The translations under genes and the position numbers were made by a program. From the NCBI GenBank assembly GCA_964537895.1, contig CAZIDK010000003.1, positions 1,171 through 65,170 on the forward strand: a DNA stretch of 64,000 bases, given 5' to 3'. The DNA comes from an uncultured Gammaproteobacteria bacterium. Its GTDB lineage: Bacteria > Patescibacteriota > Microgenomatia > Levybacterales > UBA12049. Positions within the stretch are counted from its first letter, which is position 1. The number at the start of each line of letters is the position of its first letter. A model generated the notes under the pieces. It saw nothing but the letters and a program-made list of their open reading frames with translations, had not been told where the DNA came from and did not search any database. This document shows positions 1,247-63,960 of the stretch, piece by piece.

Positions 1247-1876
1247 CTAGAGATTCCTGTTTCTTATCGTAACCGAGGTCTGAAACGGGACGCTTGCCTT
1301 TTTTTCTGCAAAATTACCTGGATTATTGTCGGATAGGGTCAGATTTATTCCAATCGTAGGGGCTTGGCCAAAATTAGTCTGCGTACAGGTAAAAGAGCAC
1401 AAAACAAGCGAAACGGCTGAGGTGTCTATAAGAGATGCGCCGTTTGAGGCAATCGTTGAACCATTACAGGAAAATATTGTCTGACCGCTGTCAAATGAAG
1501 TTATTTTTATATACTGATAGGCAATTGGAGCAGGAGTAGGTGAAGGAGAGGGAGGAATTGCTTGGGTACAATTAGTTTTGTAAAAAACGCCGTCCGTACT
1601 CACACCGTTAAAGTTTTGAGCATAAATAATCATTTTTGACATTTGCGTAATTGCATCGTTGCCGTTTTGCCTAACACTATCCAAAACATTAGATTTACTT
1701 CCTCCGCGCAAGGAAGAAATAAGAATACCGGCTACGATAACACCAACAACAACCACAATTGCCATAACTGCCAAAAGTTCTACCAATGTATAACCCTTCT
1801 CGGAATTGAAAATTGAAAATTGCCCGCCCCGCTTCACTTGGCGAGGCCGGGGAAAATTGAAAATTCGTTTTTTCAT
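1247..1876 (-). CDS. prepilin-type N-terminal cleavage/methylation domain protein (pilin-like, 'pseudopilin'); the leader peptide contains an in-frame repeat-element insertion
   Basis: Has the G|YTLVELLAVMAIVVVVGVI class III signal. Unusually long leader MKKRIFNFPRPRQVKRGGQFSIFNSEKG. PSPSPTPAP linker further in. Confidence 0.75.
   Translation of the reverse strand: MKKRIFNFPRPRQVKRGGQFSIFNSEKGYTLVELLAVMAIVVVVGVIVAGILISSLRGGSKSNVLDSVRQNGNDAITQMSKMIIYAQNFNGVSTDGVFYKTNCTQAIPPSPSPTPAPIAYQYIKITSFDSGQTIFSCNGSTIASNGASLIDTSAVSLVLCSFTCTQTNFGQAPTIGINLTLSDNNPGNFAEKKASVPFQTSVTIRNRNL
1803..1867. repeat. GC-rich palindromic element (core CCCGCCCCGCTTCACTTGGCGAGGCCGGGG) flanked by GAAAATTGAAAATT repeats, inserted in frame in the pilin leader
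   Basis: Near-identical copies at 6280-6338 and 37868-37985; all are translated in the same orientation. Confidence 0.7.
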
Positions 1877-3433: not shown

Positions 3434-4227
3434 CCCGAGCCTGTGCAGCTTTGACTAAACGAGCTTGGGGTACAGGCTCCTCTACCTGTGTAATAATTGT
3501 AGGTGCAGGTTTGCAAGCCCGTTCCGCACTGAACACTGCAGGAACCGCAGGAAGCGCCGGTATTGCAGATTGGTGTAGGCGTTGGGGTTGGAGACGGAGT
3601 CGGTATCGTAGTTGGAGGCGGGGTTGGAGCAGGGGTAGGGGTATTTACGATATTTGTTTTCCCTAAGGTTATAATGCCTTGCGGATTAACTGTTATTGTT
3701 TTTGTTTGATCATGCCCTGTCAGGACTATATTTCCCCCACCTTGTACGCCGCTGGTAATAACCGGAAAGAAAACAAAAGTAGTGGTTGTTTGTCCGGAAG
3801 CAAGGTTAAATTTAATATTTCCATTATCCGGCAGTGTTATTGTTTGAATCAAATAAGTTCCCAGACAAACGGCGCTTAAGCTGTACGTTGTGTCGGAAAG
3901 AATGTCTACCCGATATCCGCTAAGCGCCTCATTTGAGCACTGGTTTGGTTTTACCTGGGAACTCGCGCTGGATTTGGCCAAATTTAAAGTTGACGCTAAA
4001 CTTGCGGCCGCAGTTTGAAGCGATTGAGCTCTACTGTAATTAACAAATGATACAATGCCTATGGTCGAAAGAATTGAAATAACAGAAAAAACTATTATTA
4101 ACTCTAGAAGAGTAAATCCTTCACTTTTTATTAATCTCGGAAAGTGAAGGGTAAACCCTCTATTGCTGAGCTGTTGAATTGCTGAATTGTTGAAATTAGT
4201 TTTCATAGCAATGTAATAATTTAACAA
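3427..4227 (-). CDS. pilin-like protein with a C-terminal PT-rich linker and Cys-rich module (tip-adhesin-like pilin)
   Basis: GFTLLELIIV prepilin motif, then TPTPAPTPPPTTIPTPSPTPTPTP, then CxxC-rich C-terminus. N-terminal 170 aa are a near-duplicate of 2387..2875. Confidence 0.7.
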   Translation of the reverse strand: MLNYYIAMKTNFNNSAIQQLSNRGFTLHFPRLIKSEGFTLLELIIVFSVISILSTIGIVSFVNYSRAQSLQTAAASLASTLNLAKSSASSQVKPNQCSNEALSGYRVDILSDTTYSLSAVCLGTYLIQTITLPDNGNIKFNLASGQTTTTFVFFPVITSGVQGGGNIVLTGHDQTKTITVNPQGIITLGKTNIVNTPTPAPTPPPTTIPTPSPTPTPTPICNTGASCGSCSVQCGTGLQTCTYNYYTGRGACTPSSFSQSCTGSGC

Positions 4228-4701: not shown

Positions 4702-5234
4702 GGTGTGACATTTGGAGTAGATACTCCAAAATTACAAGTTCCTCCGCAAGCGTTAAAAGAAATACCGTTTATTGTTAGACTGGAACAGGCATTTCCACTG
4801 TTACACGCCCCTGGATCGCTACTGCCTCTATCCAGAGAGGCATAAAGATAATAAGATTGTCCAGTAGAGTAGTAAACGTAATTTTTAGAAGCTGTCGGGT
4901 CTTTAGGCAAAAGATTCATGTATGGCTGCCACGATTTCCCCCAATCAATAACTGTTGAACCGGGCGGAACAGTTATTCTGTAAAGCGGTGAGCTTACAGA
5001 AGACAATGGATATTTACCATTATCTTGATAATAGGCCTCTAAGGTTTTTTGCACCTGGGATAAATCCGATTTCCTTCTTGAATCATTTGCCTTTTGAAAT
5101 TGAGCAACAGGATTAAGGGCAACTATTGAGCCCGCAGCCAAGATGGATAATATACCGACAACAACTATTAGTTCTATAAGGGTAAAACCCTTGCTCCGAT
5201 TTGAAATTCTTTTAATCATTTTTATTGTGTACAT
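4698..5234 (-). CDS. GspG-like pilin paralog
   Basis: SKGFTLIELIVVVGILSILA, then LSQVQKTLEAYYQDNGKYP. Confidence 0.8.
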   Translation of the reverse strand: MYTIKMIKRISNRSKGFTLIELIVVVGILSILAAGSIVALNPVAQFQKANDSRRKSDLSQVQKTLEAYYQDNGKYPLSSVSSPLYRITVPPGSTVIDWGKSWQPYMNLLPKDPTASKNYVYYSTGQSYYLYASLDRGSSDPGACNSGNACSSLTINGISFNACGGTCNFGVSTPNVTP

Positions 5235-6091
5235 AAGTTACCGCTGCAAGTTGTAGCTCCCGGTCCGGAATAACAAGTTAGGGTCCCTCCGTATATTGTA
5301 CACTGGTTAGATGTTACACTGTTACAGAGTCCGGCGCTGACCGCAAAGTAATTCGGACTGCAATTAAACGGCGTAGGCGTAGGCGTAGGCGTAGGCGTTG
5401 GGGTAGGAATTCCGCTTCCTGTTGGGGTAGGGATAGGGGGGGTTGGCGTTGGGGTAGGTGTTGGAACAGGCGTTGCGAATAAAGGAGCTGGCAATGAGTT
5501 TGCGGATATGTAAGCGCAATCTACTTTTCCCGATAGCACGCAATAATTATAACCTGAACTTTGATAATCTACCGGCAAACAGTTAGATAGCTCTGTTAAA
5601 GGACAGGAGGTTTGCACGTCTTGGGCTGAAGATAATTTAGCAAATAGCACGTTCCACTGCGGACATTGAGTTGTATCTGTTTGGTAAAGATATGACGGAT
5701 TAGAGCCATTTGAAAAATCCGGATCTTGAGGAACTTTTTGCATATACACTATTGAACCGCTGCTAAACGGAGCTCCCATTGTTAACGAAATAGGATAACA
5801 GTTTTTATCACTATAGTAAGCATCAAGAGAGTTTCTTATTTGGAATACATCATGCTGACGCTGTGCATCTCTTGCTTTCTGGAGCTGCCTTATCGGATTA
5901 ATAGTCACTATTAGAAAGGTGATAAGCACAGACAATATAATAATTACAACTACTAATTCTATTAGGGTAAACCCAAAAAAATTATTATTTTTGGAATTAA
6001 TAAATCTCCATAAAAGAGGGCTAAAATTGTACCTAATATTAAAAAGGGGCCAAAAGGAATTGTGTCTTTTATAGACCTTTTTTTTCGCCAT
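5222..6091 (-). CDS. pilin-like protein with a long leader, GspG-like N-domain, long PT-repeat linker and Cys-rich C-terminal module
   Basis: FGFTLIELVVVIIILSVL; (TP)n linker TPVPTPTPTPTPPIPTPTGSGIPTPTPTPTPTPTP; C-terminal CxxC-rich segment. The annotated start overlaps the peptidase gene by 130 nt, so the true start is uncertain. Confidence 0.65.
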   Translation of the reverse strand: MAKKKVYKRHNSFWPLFNIRYNFSPLLWRFINSKNNNFFGFTLIELVVVIIILSVLITFLIVTINPIRQLQKARDAQRQHDVFQIRNSLDAYYSDKNCYPISLTMGAPFSSGSIVYMQKVPQDPDFSNGSNPSYLYQTDTTQCPQWNVLFAKLSSAQDVQTSCPLTELSNCLPVDYQSSGYNYCVLSGKVDCAYISANSLPAPLFATPVPTPTPTPTPPIPTPTGSGIPTPTPTPTPTPTPFNCSPNYFAVSAGLCNSVTSNQCTIYGGTLTCYSGPGATTCSGNLCTQ

Positions 6092-6831
6092 ATAATTAGT
6101 ATGATACCTATAATTGCTCCTGTCAAGAAAGCTAAATACAAGGCTAAAATTATCTTCGGAAAACCCAGTATGAGCCCAAGCAAAAACGACAGTTTTACGT
6201 CTCCAAAACCCATACCTTTACCCTTGGTAATCAAGAATAGAATAAGAAAAAAAACGAATGCCCCAATAGCGGAAAAAACAAAATTGAAAATTGAAAATTG
6301 CCCGTCCCGAGTGAAATCGAGGGGAAAATTGAAAATTAAATAAATAGAGCTTACGATTATTGCCGGGAAGACTACTTTATCCGGAATAATTCCAAATTTT
6401 AAATCTTCAAAAAAAATAACAATAAAACTTGAGACAATAAATAAATAATAAACCAGGCTGATTAAAGATTGAAGATTAAAGATTAAAGAATTAGAAATTG
6501 ACCCGCCTGCAACGCTTTGCATAGCAATGCGGGCAGGAAATTGAAAATTAAGTCCATAAACAAACATAAATGTGGTTAAGAATAAAATTCCCGTAGAAAA
6601 CTCTATGATAGGGTAGAATATACCAATGGACTTATGACAGTATCTGCATTTTCCCTTCAGCATTAAAAACGAGAGTAGGGGAATGAGATCATACCAAGCA
6701 AGTTCTTTTTTACAAAACTCGCAATGTGATCTCCCTTTTGCAATTGTTTCCTTACGAGGCAATCTGTCGATAGCTACATTTAAAAAGGAGCCGATGAAAA
6801 CTCCTATTGCAAATATGAATAAAAACTCCAT
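5962..6831 (-). CDS. pilD: prepilin peptidase (A24 family, PilD/ComC-like) carrying two in-frame repeat-element insertions
   Basis: N-terminal CxxC..CxxC (CEFCKKELAWYDLIPLLS..GKCRYCHKSI), multiple TM helices and a GFGDVKL-type motif. Confidence 0.8.
   Translation of the reverse strand: MEFLFIFAIGVFIGSFLNVAIDRLPRKETIAKGRSHCEFCKKELAWYDLIPLLSFLMLKGKCRYCHKSIGIFYPIIEFSTGILFLTTFMFVYGLNFQFPARIAMQSVAGGSISNSLIFNLQSLISLVYYLFIVSSFIVIFFEDLKFGIIPDKVVFPAIIVSSIYLIFNFPLDFTRDGQFSIFNFVFSAIGAFVFFLILFLITKGKGMGFGDVKLSFLLGLILGFPKIILALYLAFLTGAIIGIILIIWRKKRSIKDTIPFGPFLILGTILALFYGDLLIPKIIIFLGLP
6280..6338. repeat. GAAAATTGAAAATT-flanked GC-core element (variant core CCCGTCCCGAGTGAAATCGAGGGG) in frame inside pilD
   Basis: Encodes FNFPLDFTRDGQFSIFNF. 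Same flanks and orientation as the copy at 1803-1867. Confidence 0.65.
6494..6552. repeat. second element type (core CCCGCCTGCAACGCTTTGCATAGCAATGCGGGCAGG, GAAATTGAAAATT flanks) in frame inside pilD, followed by AGATTAAAG x3
   Basis: Encodes LNFQFPARIAMQSVAGGSISNSLIFNLQSL. The same 36-nt core recurs in intergenic DNA at 43794-43829 and, as a variant, at 18113-18152. Confidence 0.65.
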
Positions 6832-6868
6832 TTTTATTAGTATAACAAATCAGAAGAAAAAATGAGGC

Positions 6869-7501
6869 TTATTTTGTGCACCAGTAGCATTGAGTTGTCC
6901 CGCCATTTCCTTCACAAGCTGTTTGAGGACTGGCAACTGGTGTTCCATCTTTATTATATATAGTAGCTAAAGATTTTCTCTGAGATGTCGATTGCGGCCT
7001 ATAACAGCCTGTAAGCGTATTGGCAGCCAGATCATAAGTAACAAATATTTCTTTCAAGATAGTTGTTGCAGTTTGAAAGCCGGATTTTAATTCTTTTTCA
7101 TTAACAAGTGCTGTCGTACAGGTATTAAGAGGGGTATCGTTTAAGGAAATATTCGGATTGGTTGCTGCGCTTGGGGCCACGCCTCCATTACATGCTGATC
7201 CGCCATTAGCAATGGTATCCCATGGAAAGGTATTACGCGTTGTGTAATATCTTACATTAGCATTAAGATACTCAACTAAAGCATTTTTTGTGTTTGCATC
7301 CTGCGCTTTTTTAAGCTGTTCAAAAGGATCAATTGTTGCAACGAGTGCTGCTGCCAAAACGCCGAGGATTCCGATAACAACCAGAAGTTCGATGAGGGTA
7401 AAGCCTGCGGTCTTTTTTGATAATCCTAATAATTTCTTTAACTTCTCTATCAATTTTTTCATGTCTATATCAAATGTAAACATTTTTAAATTCCTTGTCA
7501 A
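6869..7501 (-). CDS. type IV pilin, major-pilin-like; the likely true start is Met14 at 7462 (MKKLIEKLKKLLGLSKKTAG|FTLIELLVV)
   Basis: Canonical G|FTLIELL cleavage/methylation site and hydrophobic helix. Sits between pilC and pilD. Confidence 0.8.
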   Translation of the reverse strand: MTRNLKMFTFDIDMKKLIEKLKKLLGLSKKTAGFTLIELLVVIGILGVLAAALVATIDPFEQLKKAQDANTKNALVEYLNANVRYYTTRNTFPWDTIANGGSACNGGVAPSAATNPNISLNDTPLNTCTTALVNEKELKSGFQTATTILKEIFVTYDLAANTLTGCYRPQSTSQRKSLATIYNKDGTPVASPQTACEGNGGTTQCYWCTK

Positions 7502-9799: not shown

Positions 9800-9873
9800 A
9801 CTTTAGTCATTAGTTAATTAGTTATTAGTTAGTTAGTAACTGATTTACTAACTACTAGTAACTAGCAACTGAT

Positions 9874-12304: not shown

Positions 12305-12601
12305 ATGAGTCAAACAGAAATAGGCGCACCAACTACGCCAACAGAAGCTAGGGAAACGCAGAGCCCCGAACGACGTCTAGTCTATGGGATCATGAGAAGA
12401 ATAGATAGGAGAGTAGAAAGAACTCTTGCCAATCCAAACTTAACACCCGATCAAATGCAAGAGCTTCTTCTACTTGCTAATCTTACGAAACTTGCCTTGG
12501 AATTAAGATGTCTAATGCCAGCAGTAAGATTTGGCGAAGAACTTGTTGAGCTATCCGATCCCTTAATGATTCCTGAAGCAACTCCCACAGAGCTAGGATA
12601 A
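12305..12601 (+). CDS. hypothetical protein; GC-rich orphan
   Basis: 98-aa ORF starting 9 nt after the holB stop. Markedly higher GC than the flanks. No motifs. Confidence 0.35.
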   Translation: MSQTEIGAPTTPTEARETQSPERRLVYGIMRRIDRRVERTLANPNLTPDQMQELLLLANLTKLALELRCLMPAVRFGEELVELSDPLMIPEATPTELG

Positions 12602-12602
12602 C

Positions 12603-12900
12603 CTCGGGGAAAATTTGAGTTTGAATAAAATGTTTCCACGTATCGATACATCACAACAAAACATTATTACTGTAAGTATACTAGTATATTAGTAATTAGT
12701 TCGACGGAAATAAATCTCAAACTCAGAAAACTAAATAACACAGGGGTCAAAAAAAATTGTGGGGAAAATTTGGGGTTGAATAAAATGTTTTCACGTATCG
12801 ATACATCACTACAAAGCTTTTAGGGGTTCAACCCCTAAAATAGATTGATAATTCAACAAGAACCGAGTAAGTGAAAAATTAAACTGGAGGGGAAAATTTG
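12603..12900. repeat. cluster of interspersed repeats: GGGGAAAATTTG(A/G)GTTGAATAAAATG units, palindromes GTATCGATAC and TATACTAGTATA, REP-like GGGGTTCAACCCC
   Basis: Units at 12605, 12763 and 12892. The block 12630-12695 is about 85% identical to the reverse complement of 54790-54870 and 55640-55720. Confidence 0.7.
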
Positions 12901-12926
12901 GGGTTGAGATTTTTACTTAAAACCGT

Positions 12927-13172: not shown

Positions 13173-13256
13173 AAACGGAATTATAGCATGAGGATTTTCT
13201 AAAGCAAATTGGGTGGAAAATTTGGATTTGCTCGCACCGACCCCTGGGGTTGAAAG

Positions 13257-13847
13257 CTAGTCTTCGAAAACTAACTCTTTTACTTGAACTGCTTCTGCTT
13301 CCGAAATGTCATATTCAGTAAATTGTTTATAATCTTTTGCCGGATTATTCGCAGCAAAATAATTAAGTATGTACGAAGAATCTACTAGGTCATCTTTCTT
13401 ACCATCAATATAAGCTGTGTAGCTTGACCAAGGATAAAGCGCAAGCTCAACCCCAGGGGTTGAAATTGGAATCGGATTTCGGTGTATATAGCGGGATACT
13501 TGTAGGAGATACTCATCTGAATCTATTAATTTTGCCTTAAAGCGGCCTTGGAAAAGACTTCCTACTTCATTATATTTAATATTAAAATATTTCGCAAAAC
13601 TGGTCGCCAATCTTAGCATAAAAAACGTGATAGGTAAGTCTGTGTCTTGCCTAAGAAGAAAATGAAAATGATTTGGCATTAAACAATATCCCAAAACGGT
13701 TACTCCAAATTTATCTTTATATTCTCTCGCTCGTTCCAAAAACCTCTTGTAATCTCTATTCTGAAGAAAAATATTTTGCTTTCTATTACCTCTGTTGTAA
13801 ACATGATAATAAGAGTCCTTTCGAAAATATCTAGGAGGAGTAGCCAT
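13257..13847 (-). CDS. HUH/Y1 tyrosine transposase, IS200/IS605-TnpA or REP-associated (RAYT)-like; the ORF is open to 14009 but Met55 at 13847 is the more likely start
   Basis: YHVYNRGNRKQNIF, then the HuH motif LMPNHFHFLL, then catalytic Tyr context SRYIHRNP. GGGGTTGA/TCAACCCC palindromes flank it at 13239-13252 and 13877-13891, and one lies inside at 13447-13461. Confidence 0.6.
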   Translation of the reverse strand: MATPPRYFRKDSYYHVYNRGNRKQNIFLQNRDYKRFLERAREYKDKFGVTVLGYCLMPNHFHFLLRQDTDLPITFFMLRLATSFAKYFNIKYNEVGSLFQGRFKAKLIDSDEYLLQVSRYIHRNPIPISTPGVELALYPWSSYTAYIDGKKDDLVDSSYILNYFAANNPAKDYKQFTEYDISEAEAVQVKELVFED

Positions 13848-14009
13848 GTTCTTAGTAAAACACGAAAGTCTTTCAGCGTCAACCCCAGGGGTTGACGCAT
13901 GGAGATAACTCTTTAAGACGTTTGACGTTTTGGAAAGTTTGGGAGAAAAAGCAGGTTGGCAGGTCGAAGATGCCCTGTGGGTAAAAATTTGGTTTTGAAA
14001 TTTTTGCAC

Positions 14010-18112: not shown

Positions 18113-18152
18113 CCCGCCTGCAACGCTTGATGCGTAGCATCTGCGGGCAGGG
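18113..18152. repeat. variant of the CCCGCCTGCAACGC...GCGGGCAGG element, intergenic between gyrB and alkA
   Basis: Same ends as the copy at 6502-6537; the central segment differs. Confidence 0.5.
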
Positions 18153-18254: not shown

Positions 18255-18839
18255 ATGTTTAAAGATCCAATCCTCAAAAAACTTTATAAAAAATATGGAC
18301 CGCATGGGTTTGAAGACAGAACTGAATTTTTGTACGAAGAACTGGTCGAGTCAATTATAGGCCAGCAGTTAAGCGGCAAAGCCGCCGATACTATATTTAA
18401 AAGATTTCTCGGTCTTTACAAAAACAGTAAGTTTCCAAGACCTGAAGAATTACTAAAAACCAATACTGAAAAATTAAGAAGCGCCGGCATGAGCTATAGC
18501 AAAGCTTCTTATATTAAGAATATCGCTCAAGCGTTTGAAAACGGAGATTTAGATATCAAAACATTAAGAAAAATGAATGATGAAGAGGTAAAAAAAGAAC
18601 TGACCAAAATAAAAGGGGTGGGTAATTGGACCGCGGAAATGATTTTAATTTTTACTTTTAAGAGAGAGGATGTTTTTTCGCTAGGCGACGCGGGTTTAAG
18701 ACGCGCTATTAAAAATTTGTACAACGTTGAGAAAGAAAAAGATATTTTAAAGTTGTCTGAAAACTGGAAACCGAACAGAAGTTTTGCTTGCTGGTACCTG
18801 TGGAGGAGTCTCGACAACGAGCCCCTTCCAAATGATTAA
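18255..18839 (+). CDS. HhH-GPD DNA glycosylase (AlkA / 3-methyladenine glycosylase II-like)
   Basis: KIKGVGNWTAEMILIF...DVFSLGDAGLRRAI, a helix-hairpin-helix with the catalytic Asp. Confidence 0.7.
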   Translation: MFKDPILKKLYKKYGPHGFEDRTEFLYEELVESIIGQQLSGKAADTIFKRFLGLYKNSKFPRPEELLKTNTEKLRSAGMSYSKASYIKNIAQAFENGDLDIKTLRKMNDEEVKKELTKIKGVGNWTAEMILIFTFKREDVFSLGDAGLRRAIKNLYNVEKEKDILKLSENWKPNRSFACWYLWRSLDNEPLPND

Positions 18840-18891
18840 TGATGAGGGATTAATGATTAATGATTTTTTATTCTTTGCTATACTCTATTAG

Positions 18892-19330: not shown

Positions 19331-21367
19331 ATGAACTTATCTTTTATTTTGGACCACAAACTTATTGTTTCCGTTGCCGCGGGAATCCTCTCCATTTTAT
19401 ACGCAGTTTTCTTAAGCTACAGAGTTTTGTCACATGAACGGGGTGACAAAAAAATGAATGATATTTCCGACGCAATAGAAGAAGGCGCAGTTGCCTACAT
19501 GAAAAGACAATATACCGTAGTTGCCGCAATCGGTGCCATCGTTTTTGCAATTTTATATTTTGTTTTTAATCCAATAACTGCAATTGGATTTGCAGTCGGC
19601 GCTGTTTTTAGTACCATCGCAGGCGTTATCGGAATGTCTATTGCCGTTAGAAGTAACATAAGAACCGCACAAGCAGCTAAAAAAGGCCTTGCTGCGGCAT
19701 TTAATTTGGCTTTCCAGGGCGGAGCGGTAACAGGGCTGATGGTTGCAGGACTTGCTCTTTTAGCAGTTTCCGGATTTTATTTTGTTTTAGAAAGATATGC
19801 CCCGGGAAATCTCCAACCGTTAATTGCCTTAGGTTTCGGAGGAAGTTTGATTTCTGTTTTTGCCAGACTTGGAGGGGGAATCTTTACAAAATCTGCCGAT
19901 GTAGGAACAGATATGGTTGGAAAACTGGAGAAAGGAATTCCGGAAGACGATCCAAGAAATCCCGGAGTTATTGCGGATTTGGTAGGGGATAATGTCGGAG
20001 ATGATGCCGGAATGGCAGCGGACTTATTTGAAACTTATGTAATTACGGCAGTCGCCGCTATGATTTTAGGAAATTTAACTTTTCCGGGAAACCAAGCAGT
20101 TTTATTTTACCCGATGTTAATCGGAGCAATTTCTATTGTTGCCTCGATTATCGGAACTTGGTTTGTAAGACTGCGCGGAACAGGAATAATGAACGCTTTG
20201 TATCAAGGTCTAATTGCCTCAATACTTGTTTCCTTGGTAGGATTTTATGCAATAACCGCCGCTGTTTTTCCAAATGGAATCGGAAATATACCAACGCTAA
20301 ATCTTTTTTATGCGTCTATGATTGGCCTGATTGTTACAATCGGAATGGTTGTAATTACGGAATATTTTACTTCCAAAAAATTCTCACCCGTTAGAACAAT
20401 CGCCAACGCATCTTCCACAGGACACGGAACAAATGTAATCGCGGGTTTGGCAGTTTCCATGAAATCCACAATGGCTCCGATTCTTTTAATTGCAGGAGCA
20501 ATTTTAGTTTCGTTTAATCTGGCAGGACTTTATGGAATCGCAATTGCCGCAATGAGCATGTTATCTTTGGCAGGAATTATTGTTGCAATCGATGCTTTCG
20601 GACCAATAACCGATAACGCAGGCGGAATTGCCCAAATGGCCGGTATGGATAAAAAAGTTAGAGACATTACAGATCCTTTGGACGCAGTCGGAAATACGAC
20701 CAAGGCAATTACTAAAGCTTATGCAATCGGGTCTGCGGGACTTGCAGCATTAGTTTTATTTGCAAGCTACACACAAGAATTAAGCAGAAATGGAAGGGTA
20801 TTGGATATGGCAGCATTTTCACTTTCCGATCCAAAAGTAATTATCGGATTATTTATCGGCGGTGCATTACCATACCTTTTTGCAGCCCTTGCAATGGAAG
20901 CTGTTGGAAAAGCCAGCGTTGCAGTTGTTGATGAAGTCAGAAGACAATTCAGGGAAATCAAAGGTCTTATGGAAGGCAAAGCAAAACCCGAATATGCAAA
21001 AGCAGTTGATATTGTAACTCGCGCCGCAATCAAAGAAATGATTTTACCAACTGCAATTACGCTTTTAGCGCCAATTGTTGTTGGTTTTGGTTTAGGCCCA
21101 ACAGCCTTGGGGGGGATGTTAGTCGGAAGCATTGTCACAGGTCTATTCTTAGGAATTTCTATGACTACCGGCGGAGCAGCCTGGGATAACACCAAAAAAT
21201 ATATTGAAGAAGGAAATTTGGGCGGCAAAGGAAGCTTTGCGCACCAAGCGGCAGTTACGGGAGATACTGTTGGCGACCCTTACAAAGATACCGCTGGGCC
21301 TGCAATCAATCCAATGATTAAGGTTTTGAACATTGTAGCTCTCTTAATCGCAGGCTTCCTTGTTTAG
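19331..21367 (+). CDS. hppA: membrane-bound proton-translocating pyrophosphatase; the ORF is open from TTG at 19295 but ATG 19331 (MNLSFIL) is the more likely start
   Basis: Hallmarks [20 protein letters not shown] and [21 protein letters not shown], with about 15 TM helices. Confidence 0.93.
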
Positions 21368-21448
21368 ATACTAGTTACTAGATACTAGAAACTAGTTGAT
21401 AATTTAGGAGAACTAATAACTAATCAACTAGCAACTAATCACTAATTT

Positions 21449-23917: not shown

Positions 23918-23998
23918 AAGATAGCGTATAGGAAATAGCGTATAGGGTATAGTTAACCAGACACTAAACGCTAGACGCTAATAACTAATCACTGATTT

Positions 23999-32485: not shown

Positions 32486-33125
32486 AACCCTCTGATATCA
32501 ATTTTCTTCGGAGAAGTGAAAAATTATTAAAATTTAGCCTCAATTAGCCTCAAAAAATTCATCTGCATTAGTCCTGTAGTAGGGAAGACTATAAAGCTGT
32601 AAAAAACGGGGACTTAATCTGAAACATAGCGTACCAAGAGTTGAAATGTTTTTAAATATATGCTGAAAAATAAGACGCCGGAAGAGGTCTTCTCCCAGGC
32701 ATTGAGCCTAGCTGGCGTCGTAAAAGTATTATTGTGCGACATAATCAATTACCCTCGCCCAGCTGCTTATAACACTAAATTTTCTCCCTAACACCCGCCG
32801 GGGTACAATATTAGTTATTAGCTACTAGATATTAGTTAGTAGTTAGTGCTCTCTTCAAATAAACCGCTAAATTATCTAACTACTGCGAGTCGTACAAGAC
32901 CCTCTCTCCACCGAGCCGGCACGTAGTTGAATTTAGCCCGTTATTATAAGCTAATCGCGTAATTTTAGCCTCAAAAATGTTGAGTATAGCAATTATACAT
33001 ACTAATCCTTAGAAAGAGAACGCGCCATAAGAGGCATTCGTATTTTTTTCATTAGAAACAGTTTACGATCCGCCTTTAGGCGGGAGTAGTTACTGTTTCT
33101 TATGTCCGCCGATGATTCGCTCTTT

Positions 33126-33176
33126 GCGCCGTATACGAATAGTACTGAAAAGGCGCAAAGTAAGATTAGGCGGACC
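33126..33176. repeat. nested-hairpin element GCGCCGTATACGAATA..AAAGGCGCAAAGTAAGATTAGGCGG inside a roughly 1-kb noncoding region
   Basis: Related to the copies at 36915-36980 and 43765-43868. Perfect 9-bp stem CTTTGCGCC/GGCGCAAAG. Confidence 0.5.
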
Positions 33177-33495
33177 AAACAGAGAGAAGACATGGGTAAG
33201 CCCGGTACGGTGTGAAAAGTCGAGTATATTTCCGTGAAAATAAAAAAGTTATCCACACCGGCCTCAAAATAAGTCCTATAATATTAAATTGGTTAGAGTA
33301 TCAAACTATATCACGTTCGTCGCTGCGCTCCTCAGTGCAAGCCCAAAGGACTCCTCCTCTCCCCTCCTTCCCTGTTTCTTTAAAAAAATTCCCGAAGCTA
33401 ATTGAAGCTAAATTAAATATAATTTAAGAAGATTTGTGCGTGCGTCAGAAACTATCAGCTATTTGCCATTAGCCAAAAACCGAAGCTGTGCTTCC

Positions 33496-35063: not shown

Positions 35064-35211
35064 CATACGTAGCAACTAGCCACTAGAACTTAGCAACTAG
35101 TTGTTAACTGAATGCTAAATGCTGAAGGCTAGATGCTGATATTATACCTTTTCTACCTTGACTTTTGCAATTGATTTGTAGTAAAATTTTCCAATCGATT
35201 TTATCTCCTAA

Positions 35212-36078: not shown

Positions 36079-36915
36079 TTAAAATTTCAGATCCCTTAAA
36101 GCATCTTTACCGATAATTATTGTAACATCCGAAATGTCTCTTTGGGAAGACTTAACTGGTTTTACCCTCAAAAATGAAGCCAGTCTTTTAACCGTGTAAT
36201 TTAAGTCGCCCGAGTATAAAATCTGAGAGTTATCTTGAGGTTTATCCGAAGAAGAGACCAAAACTACATCTCCGCCTATATTGGCAATAAGAAACGCCAG
36301 TCTATTTGCCAATCCGTAAACTCTTGTAGCATTAATAATCTCTACCGTTGTTTTTTCATTTGCTATTGCCGAGTCTATAAAAAAAGATGAAACAAAAGCA
36401 TTAATAGTCAGAGTATCGCTGCTTAAAGCATCTCTTTGGTAAATAAAATCTATAGAAACATCTTTAGCAAAAAGCCAGAGTCTTAGGGCGTCAATAATTG
36501 TTAGGCTCGTATCTTGATCGCTGTATTGAAATAAAATTCTTGACATATCCAACGCAAGATTTTTCTTATCAATTATCATCTTGTTTGTCTTAAGCGTTGC
36601 ATCTATGGGAAGACCTATATATTGACTTATATTGTGATTGGAGAATTTACCTTTCAAATTAATAACCGCAATCGAGCGGGTTGCCGGTGAAAAAGAAACA
36701 ACCGAAACTTGAGTATCTTGAAATATACCTACATTAAATCTATTTTGACCGTCAAAACTGCTATTTTTTATTAAAATTAGAGTTTTTACGGCAATTGACA
36801 TTAAAATCAATAAAAATACCAAAGCACAAAAAACAATAGCAACGCTTAAGGTTTTACCTTTCTGTTTTTTCCGTTTCATAAGGATTAGTCTTTCTTTGAG
36901 CCCAACTAAAATCAC
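36079..36915 (-). CDS. membrane-anchored protein with a LytR_C-like C-terminal domain; start uncertain (GTG at 36915 or ATG at 36879)
   Basis: VEIINATRVYGLANRLAFLIANIGGDVV resembles the LytR C-terminal domain. One TM helix. Confidence 0.45.
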   Translation of the reverse strand: MILVGLKERLILMKRKKQKGKTLSVAIVFCALVFLLILMSIAVKTLILIKNSSFDGQNRFNVGIFQDTQVSVVSFSPATRSIAVINLKGKFSNHNISQYIGLPIDATLKTNKMIIDKKNLALDMSRILFQYSDQDTSLTIIDALRLWLFAKDVSIDFIYQRDALSSDTLTINAFVSSFFIDSAIANEKTTVEIINATRVYGLANRLAFLIANIGGDVVLVSSSDKPQDNSQILYSGDLNYTVKRLASFLRVKPVKSSQRDISDVTIIIGKDALRDLKF

Positions 36916-36980
36916 TCCGTGAACCGTATTCGAATAGAATAGAAAGGCGAACGGTAAGATTAGGCGGGTTTCTTTTTTGA
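36915..36980. repeat. intergenic element CTCCGTGAACCGTATTCGAATA..AAAGGCGAACGGTAAGATTAGGCGGG followed by a T-run
   Basis: Shared with 43765-43868 and partly with 33126-33176. Confidence 0.55.
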
Positions 36981-37150: not shown

Positions 37151-37288
37151 GCACGTTCGATGCGACTCAGTACAAAAAATGCTGAGCGCAGTCGCACGTT
37201 CGATGCGACTCAGTACAAAAAATGCTGAGCACAGTCGCACATTCGACAATGCTCAGTGCGATACTGAGTTTATCGAACGTATCGAAGG
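37151..37288. repeat. tandem 43-bp hairpin repeat (2 full units plus an inverted partial unit)
   Basis: GCACGTTCGATGCGACTCAGTACAAAAAATGCTGAGC(G/A)CAGTC twice; the third unit ends with inverted TCGAACGT. Confidence 0.7.
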
Positions 37289-37299
37289 TATTTTTGTGC

Positions 37300-38091
37300 T
37301 TATTGGCTGATTACCTTACTCAATTCCCCAGGCAATGGAGACTCTAATAAGACTTGCTTATTGGTTATTGGGTGTATGAATGAAATTTTGTGTGCGTGCA
37401 AGAAAACGCGCTTGAGAATTTTTCTGTCCTGCCTTGAGGTTTTTCTTCCCGCATATAAAAAGTCAGCAAAAATAGGATGACTAAAATACTTTAAGTGAAC
37501 TCTTATCTGATGCGTTCTTCCTGTTTCCGGATAAAGCTCCAGGAGGCTCATCGGCTCTTCTTTTTTTCCCGATACTAAATACTTAATACTTAATACTTTA
37601 TACTTCGTAACCGCTTCCCTACCGCCTGCCAAAACCCCAAACTTTTTTCTGTTCCAAGGCAGTCTTCCGACAGGAACATTTATTTCTCCTATCTCCGGCA
37701 CAACTTTCCCGTGGCAAAGCGCAAGATAAGTTTTTTTTATAACTCTTTCTTTAAACTGTTTTTGCAGATTTTCAAAAGCCGGAAGGGTTTTGGCAACAAG
37801 TAAAATTCCCGAAGTTTCTTTATCAAGCCTATGAACTATTCCGCTTCTTTTATAAAAATCCGACTCCTCGTCAATTCTGAATTCTGCCCGCCCCGCTTCG
37901 CTTGTCGAGGCTGGAGAACTCTGCCCGCCCCGCTTCGCTTGTCGAGGCCGGGGAACTCTGAATTTACTGTCCAGCCAATCCTGTACCGTTTCCTCCCCTA
38001 TCGTAGTATCGGAACGATTAACAGTTATTCCCGCGGGCTTATCCAAAACCAAAACGTCATCGTCCTCGTAAATTATTTTAATATTACTCAT
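37300..38091 (-). CDS. RluA-family pseudouridine synthase with an in-frame tandem repeat-element insertion
   Basis: HRLDKETSGILLVAKT catalytic motif. The insert encodes RVPRPRQAKRGGQSSPASTSEAGRAEF just before the catalytic loop. Confidence 0.85.
   Translation of the reverse strand: MSNIKIIYEDDDVLVLDKPAGITVNRSDTTIGEETVQDWLDSKFRVPRPRQAKRGGQSSPASTSEAGRAEFRIDEESDFYKRSGIVHRLDKETSGILLVAKTLPAFENLQKQFKERVIKKTYLALCHGKVVPEIGEINVPVGRLPWNRKKFGVLAGGREAVTKYKVLSIKYLVSGKKEEPMSLLELYPETGRTHQIRVHLKYFSHPIFADFLYAGRKTSRQDRKILKRVFLHAHKISFIHPITNKQVLLESPLPGELSKVISQ
37868..37985. repeat. two tandem copies of the GC-core element CTGCCCGCCCCGCTTCGCTTGTCGAGGC(C/T)GG(G/A)GAACT flanked by GAATT repeats, in frame inside rluA
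   Basis: Core is near-identical to 1818-1850. The copies are 40 nt apart, so they are read in two different frames. Confidence 0.7.
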
Positions 38092-43594: not shown

Positions 43595-43764
43595 TAATTA
43601 TTCACCCCCCTTCGCCACGTCTGACGTGGCTTCGCCCCGCAAAGTTCTGCATTACAGAACGACGTGGGGTTCCCTTTATATAATATTCGTGAATTGAAAA
43701 TCATAGCTTTATTGCACAAACCATTGCTTCGGGAGAACAAGTCCCCCCTGTCCGACTTAAAACG

Positions 43765-43868
43765 CTCCGTGAGCCGTATTCGAATAAAATTGACCTGCCC
43801 GCATTGCTATGCAAAGCATTGCAGGCGGGAAAGGCGAACGGTAAGTTTAGTCGGATTCCCGTTTTTTG
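43765..43868. repeat. composite element: the CCGTATTCGAATA..AAAGGCGAACGGTAAG..T-run element with a nested CCTGCCCGCATTGCTATGCAAAGCATTGCAGGCGGG element inserted inside
   Basis: Outer part aligns with 36915-36980. Inner 36 nt (43794-43829) is the reverse complement of 6502-6537. Confidence 0.6.
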
Positions 43869-45169: not shown

Positions 45170-45283
45170 AACACTCCTTTTACTCGTAAATCCGAAATTC
45201 GAATATCGAAATCCGAAACTTTTTGAATTTTTGTCATTTGAATTTGTTTCGAAATTGGTGCTTCGTGCTTCGAGCTTATTGTT

Positions 45284-54407: not shown

Positions 54408-54752
54408 TTATATTTCCATTTTATCTTTTATTTTTTCAAGTCCGGCTTTAGTCATTTTCCCTTCTTTTATTAACTTTTTTATTCTTTCCTTATTACTCTC
54501 CGATAAATTGCTTTTTTCTTTTCTTGGGGTAAATCTGCCGGCAAATGTTTCCCTATCAATCCCCTTTTCTATGCTATCTATCCAGCCAAAACAAAGAGCT
54601 TCTTCAACCGCATCGTTATAGGAAATTGTTGGTTTTCCTGTTGTTTTCTTGTAATAGATAAGCCAAATCTCCTTTTCCTTATCGTAGTTTTTAGAAAACC
54701 ACTTTCTCCACTCTTTCCTATTTGTTACATAAAGAGTTTTTCCAATATTCAT
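54408..54752 (-). CDS. YdeI/OmpD-associated (OmdA) family protein
   Basis: W..W......EIWLIYYKK..GKPTISYNDAVEEALCFGWIDS, the family signature. Confidence 0.6.
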   Translation of the reverse strand: MNIGKTLYVTNRKEWRKWFSKNYDKEKEIWLIYYKKTTGKPTISYNDAVEEALCFGWIDSIEKGIDRETFAGRFTPRKEKSNLSESNKERIKKLIKEGKMTKAGLEKIKDKMEI

Positions 54753-54756
54753 AAAC

Positions 54757-54906
54757 CAATTATACCACGGGAAAATTTGAAACTAAAGAAAAAATAGATT
54801 ACTGCAGATATACTAGTATACTTGTAATAAAAGGATTATGTAGTGATGTATCAATACATTAAAACATAATCAACTAAATAAATATCGGGGTGAAAATAAA
54901 CGCGGG
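54757..54906. repeat. 150-bp module (copy 1) holding an extended -10 promoter TGGTATAAT (minus strand) 6 nt from the ATG plus palindromes TGTATCAATACA and TATACTAGTATA
   Basis: About 95% identical to 55598-55748. Both copies abut the start codon of a minus-strand gene. Confidence 0.75.
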
Positions 54907-54969
54907 AGAAATTGGTTTTGCTAATCATAAAGTTTTGGCATATAATAAAATTAAAGGAGGTGATTTGAA

Positions 54970-55240: not shown

Positions 55241-55594
55241 CTATGAAACCATTATCTTATCGTCTGCTACCGAAGGAAATCTGATAGTTTGAACAACGAT
55301 TTCATCGCTCAAAACTTTTTTTATGCAAACTGTGATCTTTGGCGGAATAATTAAATAATCCCCCTCATTCATTTCTACTTCCTGTCCGTCGACCTCCCAA
55401 ATTCCCTTTCCATTCCAAATAATATCAAGTTTCGTTGAGGTCTTATTAAAATGGGGCTTGGATGAAAAAGATTTATCAAGCTTTGCTATTTTTATTTCTG
55501 CCCTATCATCTTTCGCTAAACCTTCCGGCATAAAACTTCCATAAATCCACCCGTTTCTTTCTTTTTCTTCGAATGCATTTCCTTTTTTATACAT
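55241..55594 (-). CDS. cupin-like small protein
   Basis: 117 aa with a beta-rich pattern including G.W.V.G.....EGDYLIIPP. Confidence 0.4.
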   Translation of the reverse strand: MYKKGNAFEEKERNGWIYGSFMPEGLAKDDRAEIKIAKLDKSFSSKPHFNKTSTKLDIIWNGKGIWEVDGQEVEMNEGDYLIIPPKITVCIKKVLSDEIVVQTIRFPSVADDKIMVS

Positions 55595-55597
55595 AAG

Positions 55598-55748
55598 TTG
55601 ATTATACCACGGGGAAATTTGAAACTAAAGAAAAATAGATTACTGCAGATATACTAGTATACTTGTAATAAAAGGATTATGTAGTGATGTATCAATACAT
55701 TAAAACATAATCAACTAAATAAATATCTGAGTGAAAAATAACTCGGGA
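55598..55748. repeat. 150-bp promoter/operator module (copy 2)
   Basis: See copy 1 at 54757-54906. Confidence 0.75.
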
Positions 55749-55782
55749 GGAATTGGGAGAAGACGTAATACGATCGTAATCC

Positions 55783-61421: not shown

Positions 61422-61571
61422 GACTTGATTTTATCACAAAAACTAATAGAAAGATTTTACATTTAACATTTGCCATTCACCATTGATTACCTCATTGTCT
61501 AATTTTTCAATGTTAAATAAATGAAAAATGGAAGATGGAAAATGATAGATAATGATTACCTGTTGGGGATT

Positions 61572-63874: not shown

Positions 63875-63960
63875 ATATTTTTAGCCATCAGCCATTAGCG
63901 TCTAGCTTTTAGTTTAACTAATTGCTAGTTGCTAGTTGCTAGCGGCTAATTACTGGTTAG

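Follow-up and report, generated by a model that had tools for sequence, protein, structure and literature searches.

The stretch of DNA analysed here (hereafter the window; 64,000 nt of contig CAZIDK010000003.1, assembly GCA_964537895.1, from an ultra-small bacterium of the Patescibacteria) carries a pilB-pilT-pilC-pilin-pilD-pilins cluster, in which the prepilin peptidase gene pilD contains two in-frame insertions of short hairpin repeats that recur in other genes and in intergenic DNA. The pilD open reading frame (ORF) encodes the Pfam domains A24_N_bact (residues 9–89) and Peptidase_A24 (residues 130–243) as well as both catalytic Asp residues, the second within a GxGD motif, as required for membership of the A24 family, and the nearest named ones among its 4428 homologs belong to Patescibacteria (Levybacteria, Microgenomates). 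Judged by these features, pilD encodes an intact, bona fide type IV prepilin peptidase. Since the protein is the same in two independent Logan assemblies, the inserts are no assembly artefact.

Hairpin repeats in pilD and elsewhere in the window

The host gene, the hairpin copies and the tandem arrays around them are as follows (positions within the window, with the supporting evidence in brackets):

5962–6831, minus strand: pilD, prepilin peptidase (PilD, A24), 289 aa (Pfam, homologs, alignment, AlphaFold)
6502–6537, plus strand: type-2 hairpin core of 36 nt in pilD, CCCGCC...GGCAGG on the plus strand (exact match, RNA fold)
6460–6501, no strand: GATTAAA x4.3 heptamer array (6460–6489), then degenerate units up to the type-2 hairpin, encoding SISNSLIFNLQSLI (Tandem Repeats Finder, TRF, period 7)
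6538–6549, no strand: heptamer units AAATTG AAAATT on the far side of the type-2 core, encoding NFQF (sequence)
6301–6324, plus strand: degenerate type-1 core of 24 nt in pilD (CCCGTCCCGAGTGAAATCGAGGGG), encoding PLDFTRDG, residues 170–177 (sequence, weak fold)
6280–6300, no strand: AAAATTG x3 array beside the type-1 core (TRF)
6325–6337, no strand: AAAATTG AAAATT beyond the type-1 core, the array phase being carried across the hairpin (sequence)
1823–1852, plus strand: type-1 hairpin of 30 nt in the leader peptide of the pilin ORF 1247–1876, minus strand (FPRPRQVKRGGQFSIFN) (sequence)
1804–1822 and 1853–1865, no strand: GAAAATT arrays flanking the pilin-leader hairpin (sequence)
37887–37916, plus strand: type-1 hairpin in the pseudouridine synthase ORF 37300–38091, minus strand (sequence)
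37924–37953, plus strand: second type-1 hairpin, in tandem after the heptamer AACTCTG and in the other frame (TRF period 37, 2.2 copies)
43794–43829, minus strand: intergenic type-2 copy with 1 mismatch, inside the loop of a ~60-nt motif (sequence match)
18113–18151, plus strand: intergenic type-2 variant of 39 nt, 27 nt past the gyrB stop (sequence match, fold)

In total, seven hairpins thus occur in 64 kb, five of them within three ORFs (pilD, pilin leader, pseudouridine synthase). The type-2 core of pilD (CCCGCCTGCAACGCTTTGCATAGCAATGCGGGCAGG) lies exactly at 6502–6537, and its complement in the mRNA reads P99–G110, that is PARIAMQSVAGG. It recurs as a reverse complement with a single mismatch at 43794–43829 (0 matches in 100 shuffles), while the 39-nt variant past gyrB is found identically in another locus (L009). 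The type-1 core of pilD is related to the 30-nt hairpin of the pilin leader and to both 30-nt copies of the pseudouridine synthase, but folds weakly (z −0.8), which fits an old, decaying copy. With up to one mismatch, GAAAATTGAAAATT has six occurrences as compared to 0.37 expected, the sole places being the pilin-leader copy and pilD. The two tandem copies of the pseudouridine synthase (Pfam PseudoU_synth_2) differ in reading frame, yielding VPRPRQAKRGGQ and SSPASTSEAGRAE, and at the hairpin segment the best solved homolog (PDB chain 11wx_A) is shorter by ~31 residues.

The original prediction, made from the letters of the window alone, had proposed two in-frame repeat insertions in pilD, and both are indeed present (6502–6537 and 6301–6324). 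The type-2 core was rightly sought inside 6494–6552, its intergenic reverse complement was correctly located, and the variant assigned to 18113–18152 was recovered as a 39-nt element. The proposed type-1 variant at 6280–6338 is related to the pilin-leader copy as claimed, but its core comprises only the 24 nt at 6301–6324, the flanks being heptamer arrays. A supposed 'AGATTAAAG x3' microsatellite, by contrast, contains no 9-mer and turned out to be the period-7 GATTAAA array (x4.3, 6460–6489 by TRF), just outside 6494–6552. The two tandem copies in the pseudouridine synthase, the heptamer arrays as context and the spread across phyla had been overlooked.

In the alignment of A24 peptidases that had been suggested, comprising 37 sequences, D143, D151 and D211 (GFGD) are invariant and all lie outside both inserts, and the two insert regions are hypervariable in length, with differences of more than 30 residues. 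Among homologs, both loops are built of 7-aa periods, with or without hairpin peptides. In the AlphaFold model of pilD (mean predicted local distance difference test score, pLDDT, 84.9), values of ~90 outside the inserts compare with 55–63 in residues 95–119 and 169–180 (55–61 for residues 91–120, 63 for residues 171–180). The loop with the type-2 insert (loop 1) connects the helices 72–94 and 120–146, that with the type-1 insert (loop 2) the helices 151–168 and 181–201. According to the model, both inserts lie in these low-confidence inter-helix loops, remote from D143 and D211, where the protein tolerates them.

The hairpins have heptamer arrays as their host context, which lie outside the element itself. 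Period 7 is the dominant tandem period of the window (18 of 68 TRF rows; seven strict tandem runs as compared to 0–2 for each of the other periods from 4 to 12). Because 7 mod 3 equals 1, three heptamer units encode a 7-aa period, for example, NFQFSIF from AATTTTC x3, SLIFNLQ from TCTTTAA x3 and PFTIYHL from CCATTTA x3. In the pilD array at 6460–6501, the unit that would yield an in-frame TAA is changed to CAA (TCTTTAA TCTTTAA TCTTCAA), as expected if a DNA repeat has been 'cleaned' by selection.

Comparison of orthologs and paralogs revealed filled and empty sites. The closest pilD ortholog (P0002 from Hainich groundwater, 81 % aa identity) carries the same 36-nt core, DNA-identical, in loop 1, with core and heptamer flanks together at almost 100 % DNA identity to the window, and an unrelated (AATACTT)n array without hairpin in loop 2. 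In P0013, a decayed type-2 core resides in loop 2, not in loop 1, and a (CATTTAC)n array that is uninterrupted in this homolog is split in P0007, precisely between TAC and CAT, by a 24-nt 'type-3' hairpin (CCCTTCGGCCTCGCTCAGGGCGGG). The P0049 gene holds a single type-3 copy in loop 1 and a tandem pair, read in two frames, in loop 2. Plain heptamer arrays without a hairpin occupy pilD loops in P0013, P0010 (both at the DNA level) and L133 and, judged at the protein level, likewise in P0012, P0016 and P0020. An ortholog of the hairpin-bearing pilin (L126, 79 % aa identity) has a leader made of heptamer arrays, again with no hairpin. All three hairpin types start with CCCGCC, which may be a shared recognition tag.

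A further filled/empty comparison is offered by the ~60-nt conserved motif CTCCGTGARCCGTATTCGAATAGAAT..AGAAAGGCGAACGGTAAGATTAGGCGG, of which the window holds three non-coding copies (36915–36970, 43755–43855 and 33115–33175). The type-2 hairpin at 43794–43829 sits in the loop of the second copy, the other two paralogs are empty at this position, and the motif recurs with the identical insertion in Roizmanbacteria (L078, ~6826–6920). As no Rfam match was obtained, the motif itself may represent a cis-regulatory RNA not yet described or a further family of repeats. Hairpins are accordingly discrete, sharp-ended DNA units that one ortholog or paralog has and another lacks at a precise point, without a target-site duplication (TSD); they are found in unrelated coding and non-coding contexts, nest within one another and keep their stem by compensatory changes.

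The dispersed type-2 family

The following counts rest on a scan of one genome per GTDB species with the pattern CCCGCCTGCAAYGC-N6-20-GCGGGCAGG, which returned at least 118 loci; numbers of copies refer to the matches listed. Hosts (locus GC 0.31–0.64) comprise many classes of Patescibacteria, that is, of the candidate phyla radiation (CPR), as well as Verrucomicrobia, Kiritimatiellia and Lentisphaerae from the Planctomycetes–Verrucomicrobia–Chlamydiae (PVC) superphylum. One 32-mer and two 36-mers are the commonest variants, and identical 32- and 36-nt variants are common to Patescibacteria and PVC genomes; the 36-mer containing TATGCGTAGCATT, for example, was found nine times in loci with GC<0.42 and nine times in loci with GC≥0.50. 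Taxon labels are partly unreliable: CAYIOB01 is titled 'Gammaproteobacteria' yet carries the CPR pilD P0002, and L029/L003 (GCA_964364925.1) and other metagenome-assembled genome (MAG) records of the 'binchicken'/ERP kind bear titles such as 'uncultured Gammaproteobacteria' or 'Pseudomonadales' on low-GC contigs with CPR-type genes. Labels from such records are no basis for inferring host range. Regular expressions for type-1 and type-3 gave no copies in the sampled type-2-bearing genomes, so that these two types look lineage-restricted.

Sequence conservation of type-2 copies ends abruptly on both sides, only the +1 base being biased (T/C in 99 of 122 copies). No consistent TSD was detected, most copies having none; direct repeats of at least 5 nt are in excess (10.6 % as compared to 1.2 %), which stems from tandem-array contexts. 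Upon in silico removal of the hairpin, the period-7 phase was continuous over the junction in 6 of 66 low-GC copies but at none of 1980 control positions, and no other period showed such continuity except for a single period-9 case. Copies nested inside copies are present in L016, L021, L044 and L083.

The type-2 core folds stably on both strands, with −20.1 kcal/mol (z −3.9) for the mRNA strand of pilD and −18.7 kcal/mol (z −3.1) for its complement. A covariation model tested on 38 distinct 36-mers comprises an outer stem of 10 bp, a 5-nt bulge, an inner stem of 4 bp and a GTA triloop. Within the inner stem, pair 16–26 alternates between AU (11), UA (11) and GC (5) and pair 17–25 between UA (22) and CG (3), giving an inner-stem covariation score of 0.086, which none of 500 shuffles reached (0.041 for shuffles). 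A continuous extended-stem model was rejected for lack of covariation. The sequence resembles helix 5 of the E. coli 4.5S/signal recognition particle (SRP) RNA (GCAACGCUA...GUAGC..GGCAGG), a likeness that we take to be coincidental, the Rfam search being negative. With Rfam 15, the whole window gave only a tRNA-Leu at gathering thresholds, and 6470–6570 nothing meaningful at E≤10.

For copies inside genes, a crude ORF caller was applied to loci of GC<0.47 (ORFs ≥100 aa; 69 type-2 copies), of which 26 were intragenic. The length was divisible by 3 in 25 of these 26 (30, 33, 36, 39 or 42 nt) as compared to 28 of the 43 intergenic copies, and the 32-nt variant proved essentially intergenic. In 24 of 26 intragenic copies the mRNA reads CCUGCC..., which is translated into PAR(N/S/I)A..SVAGG or LPA..LQAG. 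Among intergenic copies flanked by co-directional genes, the opposite orientation prevails (20:12), so the intragenic bias is no replication-strand effect; the 24:2 ratio reflects selection on peptide or mRNA. Judged by eye from flanking residues only, the hosts include a UvrA-like (L088), a Mur ligase-like (L098) and a glycosyltransferase-like gene (L029).

As to possible carriers, the 36-mer had no blastn match among INPHARED phages or PLSDB plasmids, and IMG/VR contained only six loci with it, so that viruses and plasmids are no obvious vehicles. A literature string search with the type-2 core on both strands retrieved only unrelated matches (hepatitis E virus; emu wing development), and in the literature searched no paper joins REP terms (repetitive extragenic palindrome) with CPR terms, nor was a description of the type-2 family or its sequences found.

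Low-GC CPR loci hold further GC-rich hairpins at scattered places, many of them with CCCGCC or CCCCGCC at the start (by sequence, no strand: L003 4852–4895; L029 3207–3238; L024, L026, L086, L091, L092, L103 and L109). One extra hairpin with heptamer-like flanks lies at the start of a pilin-like gene in the P0002 genome. The 'zoo' of hairpins is larger than types 1, 2 and 3.

Explanations for the spread of the hairpins

Taken together, the pilD segments are best explained as members of two families of 24–39-nt GC-rich imperfect-hairpin repeats of the REP or small dispersed repeat (SDR) kind, which reside within A+T-rich heptamer arrays, spread at the DNA level and are filtered by selection, a reading to which we assign a probability of roughly 0.7. 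It agrees with the preference of the original prediction for a mobile DNA element over a protein motif, as the core is found with sharp boundaries in unrelated genes and intergenic DNA of more than 100 other genomes. We infer that the hairpins spread as selfish elements. In such a scenario, a single-stranded hairpin would probably be inserted precisely, and selection would remove genic copies that shift the frame, bring a stop or hit a structured part of the protein; the survivors would be in-frame copies in tolerant loops and cleaved leader peptides, translated into short flexible peptides such as PAR.A..SVAGG. Several observations weigh against this explanation. No transposition event was observed, two independent assemblies of the genome being identical, and flank and co-occurrence tests linked no mobilising protein to the hairpins. 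A TSD of 7 nt could not be recognised inside a heptamer array. Because the search pattern imposed the outer stem, covariation tests the inner stem only, and a palindrome can also come to covary through hairpin-templated repair, with no selection involved. Both the 24:2 orientation bias and the identity of a 36-nt sequence across superphyla could indicate a selected function rather than pure selfishness.

The kind of element is familiar. As short GC-rich imperfect palindromes of 24–39 nt in many dispersed copies with stable folds (seven in 64 kb, at least 118 loci elsewhere), the hairpins are REPs in the broad sense, and like these 20–40-nt repeats they lie mostly between or after genes and partly in ORFs. 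Intragenic REPs have been described in Opitutus terrae, Rickettsia conorii and Stenotrophomonas, where some add 7–30 extra residues to loops and where uvrA and pseudouridine synthase genes are among the hosts (Di Nocera et al. 2013, PMC3733652); here, the pseudouridine synthase of the window and the UvrA-like ORF of L088 (the latter by its flanks only) are hit. The same study lists REP families without a dedicated transposase as well as REPtrons in species without REP families (PMC3733652). None of the O. terrae REP peptides given there (PMC3733652, Additional file 3) match the hairpin peptides described here. Unlike typical REPs, the hairpins bear no terminal GTAG or CGTC tag: they run from CCCGCC... 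to ...GGCAGG or ...CCGGGG, and GTA(G) is confined to the apical loop of type-2. They furthermore differ in being mostly singlets or direct tandems instead of inverted dimers, in a higher intragenic share in low-GC genomes (26 of 69), in their heptamer-array setting and in their distribution over two superphyla. The predominantly inverted doublets of REPs forming hairpins (REPINs) are likewise missing from the window, which has singlets and one direct tandem pair, although a few loci elsewhere (L016, L021, L044) do have nested copies in inverted orientation.

Similar elements have reportedly been described by Elhai et al. (2008) from Nostocaceae, namely SDRs, hairpins of 21–27 nt that often lie in heptamer repeats, nest and show compensatory changes. 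The tiny hairpins in tandem heptamer repeats, the nested self-insertion and the compensatory changes are shared by the present repeats, which, compared by description, differ in length (24–39 nt), in their hosts (CPR and PVC bacteria instead of cyanobacteria) and in often being translated. Rickettsia palindromic elements (RPE) are said (Ogata et al. 2000) to be genus-restricted, RPE-1 measuring roughly 100–150 bp; the hairpins share with them the character of selfish palindromic DNA that is placed in frame in coding genes of a reduced genome and tolerated in loops, but differ, again by description, in their size of 24–39 nt and their cross-phylum range. Miniature inverted-repeat transposable elements do not fit, as neither terminal inverted repeats derived from an insertion sequence nor a consistent TSD nor a transposase between paired copies was seen and the whole element is a single hairpin. 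RPEs are also mentioned in PMC3733652, and among HIP1-rich cyanobacteria only Nostocaceae were found to have repeats of the SDR type (PMC5861425). The hairpins are hence apparently an undescribed cross-phylum family of a known kind (REP, SDR, RPE), with the family itself, its host range, its high intragenic load and the lack of a cognate REP-associated tyrosine transposase (RAYT) being new.

The only candidate for a mobilising enzyme in the window lies 7 kb from pilD, linked to the hairpins by no test:

13257–13847, minus strand: RAYT-like Y1 (HUH) transposase gene (Pfam Y1_Tnp 6e-14; NCBIfam REP_Tyr_transpos 49 bits, cutoff 80)
13238–13253 and 13880–13894, no strand: palindrome CAACCCCAGGGGTTG bracketing this gene (sequence)

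A REP/RAYT system, in which this single-copy enzyme would excise and reinsert the hairpins as REPs in single-stranded form, seems unlikely to us. The gene is intact, with the HUH motif NHFHF and the catalytic Tyr in RYIHRNP, and syntenic: holB and gyrB enclose it in the window and in L133, and in L126 it adjoins a holB-pilB cluster. Insertion without TSD and imperfect hairpins with conserved mismatches would suit Y1 chemistry, RAYTs act in trans on REPs (Bertels & Rainey 2011, PMC3116915), and a single-copy syntenic Y1 gene with short flanking palindromes of its own resembles a REPtron-like locus. However, the palindrome that flanks the gene in the window, L126 and L133 (CAACCCCWGGGGTTG) differs from the dispersed hairpins; a third copy lies in frame in a variable loop of the gene itself (13448–13462, encoding STPGVE), an arrangement repeated in L126 and L133. 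Of 76 metagenomic relatives, 68 have 11-mers common to both flanks of the gene, upstream and downstream (~0.04 expected by chance), which differ from locus to locus and never contain the CCCGCC tag. In 415 kb around 80 RAYT-like genes, no strict type-1, -2 or -3 copy occurred, and a Y1 gene was present within 8 kb of only one of ~118 type-2 loci, and not adjacent. The terminal tags are missing and the NCBIfam score falls below its cutoff. A scan for HUH/Y1 motifs in all fetched loci gave nothing beyond four known RAYT-like genes, and among the ORFs between paired copies (L025, L084, L044, L127, L040), viewed by eye with no Pfam run, no transposase stood out, the one ORF recognised being PdxJ-like. 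A RAYT link to the hairpins is thus not supported, although the enzyme might still act on them in trans.

Copying of a small hairpin RNA into nicks, by reverse transcription or otherwise, was reportedly proposed for the Nostoc SDR elements, and we know of no test of this proposal even there. The tiny hairpins in heptamer arrays with their nested self-insertions recall SDRs, and owing to strand-specific G-U pairs the CCUGCC... strand folds slightly better; yet no reverse transcriptase was seen in the window or the linked loci, where no systematic search was made, and neither poly-A nor other retro-insertion scars are present, which renders this route quite improbable. It also seems improbable that the hairpin is kept as a selected RNA or DNA structure (an mRNA stabiliser, terminator, translational pause or protein binding site) with the peptide as a by-product. 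The identical sequence in CPR and PVC genomes, the covariation, the opposite leanings of intragenic (24:2) and intergenic copies (20:12), the position of the 18113 copy behind gyrB and the same insertion into the ~60-nt motif of L078 all speak in its favour, but the pilD position varies among close relatives, many orthologs have no hairpin, the type-1 copy of pilD has decayed and barely folds, and the host contexts are mutually unrelated. A function of the hairpin and selfish spread are in any case not mutually exclusive.

Slippage in heptamer arrays, with or without hairpins, might also switch pilus genes on and off as a contingency locus. Period 7 is the commonest tandem repeat and present in both the pilin leader and pilD, where one unit gained or lost would shift the frame. 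Against this stand the short (2–5 units) and degenerate arrays, the mutated stop-making units, which imply long-term translation, the two identical assemblies and the occurrence of arrays in a housekeeping pseudouridine synthase, so we regard such switching as very improbable. Least credible, and close to untenable, is the view that the inserted peptides are functional parts of the peptidase. While PARIAMQSVAGG occupies the same site in P0002, this shared stretch is identical at the DNA level too, and that DNA is non-coding in other places; other orthologs have no such peptide or have it in another loop, and the pseudouridine synthase reads the type-1 element in two frames. Protein-level conservation of the inserted peptides, named in advance as the outcome that would overturn the mobile-element interpretation, does not hold among orthologs, and a protein motif is already contradicted by these ortholog and frame data.

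Neighbouring features and implications

Several further features of the window were noted. Heptamer arrays (units TTAGTTA, TACTAGA, AATGATT etc.) lie at many gene boundaries:

9803–9837, 18831–18865, 21365–21446, 23921–23980, 32809–32845, 35070–35139, 45188–45277, 61519–61544 and 63918–63942, no strand: gene-boundary heptamer arrays (TRF)

Within the pseudouridine synthase ORF, an ATACTTA x4.9 array at 37572–37605 encodes KYKVLSIKYLVS, and PDB chain 11wx_A has 7 fewer residues in the stretch (GKKEEPM) adjoining it. Upstream of the pseudouridine synthase operon lies a gap of 384 nt, in which a 43-nt tandem repeat (37151–37257; 2.2 copies with 96 % identity) holds an internal hairpin ACTCAGTAC..GCTGAG. 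In the pilus cluster, 130 nt at the 3' end of pilD (5962–6091) are shared with the longest ORF of the pilin-like gene that follows (5222–6091); gene callers on the Logan contigs give this gene a later start (235 aa), so its long N-terminal extension is probably untranslated. Two of the pilin-like genes in the cluster share a duplicated 300-nt segment (2416–2715 and 3693–3992, 97 % identical), which points to a recent conversion or duplication event. Near the RAYT-like gene (12598–12907, 13205–13231) and upstream of the small paralogous ORFs 54408–54752 and 55241–55594 (54746–54915, 55588–55756), a repeat family GGGGAAAATTTGGGGTTGA ... ATGTTTTCACGTATCGATACATCAC ... TATACTAGTATA may represent a shared promoter or operator. 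Finally, a 1-kb stretch (32486–33495) without a convincing ORF (an 84-aa ORF, 33002–33256, overlaps the ~60-nt motif) and without an Rfam match may hold an unrecognised RNA gene.

Genomes of Patescibacteria are ~1 Mb in size and thought to be streamlined. The window nevertheless contains about one hairpin repeat per 9 kb, most of them translated in essential or surface-related genes, and even a minimal genome can accordingly have its coding sequence invaded by selfish DNA. Some of the 'CPR-specific insertions' in proteins may stem from such DNA repeats, and recurrent peptides such as PAR.A..SVAGG, PRPRQ.KRGGQ, GLAQGGQ and 7-aa periods like NFQFSIF should be masked in annotation and alignment pipelines. 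It is tempting but rather doubtful to go further and regard the CCCGCC-tagged hairpins as among the smallest autonomous-looking mobile units known (24–39 nt), which would move without TSD and without a cognate RAYT and be exchanged between Patescibacteria and PVC bacteria, possibly via episymbiont–host contacts, with heptamer arrays as a general generator of new loop sequence in ultra-small genomes. The identity over 32–36 nt between CPR genomes and those of Verrucomicrobia, Kiritimatiellia and Lentisphaerae is a rare nucleotide-level marker of exchange or shared machinery between superphyla, and the many natural filled and empty sites provide a system for studying how very small hairpin elements move.

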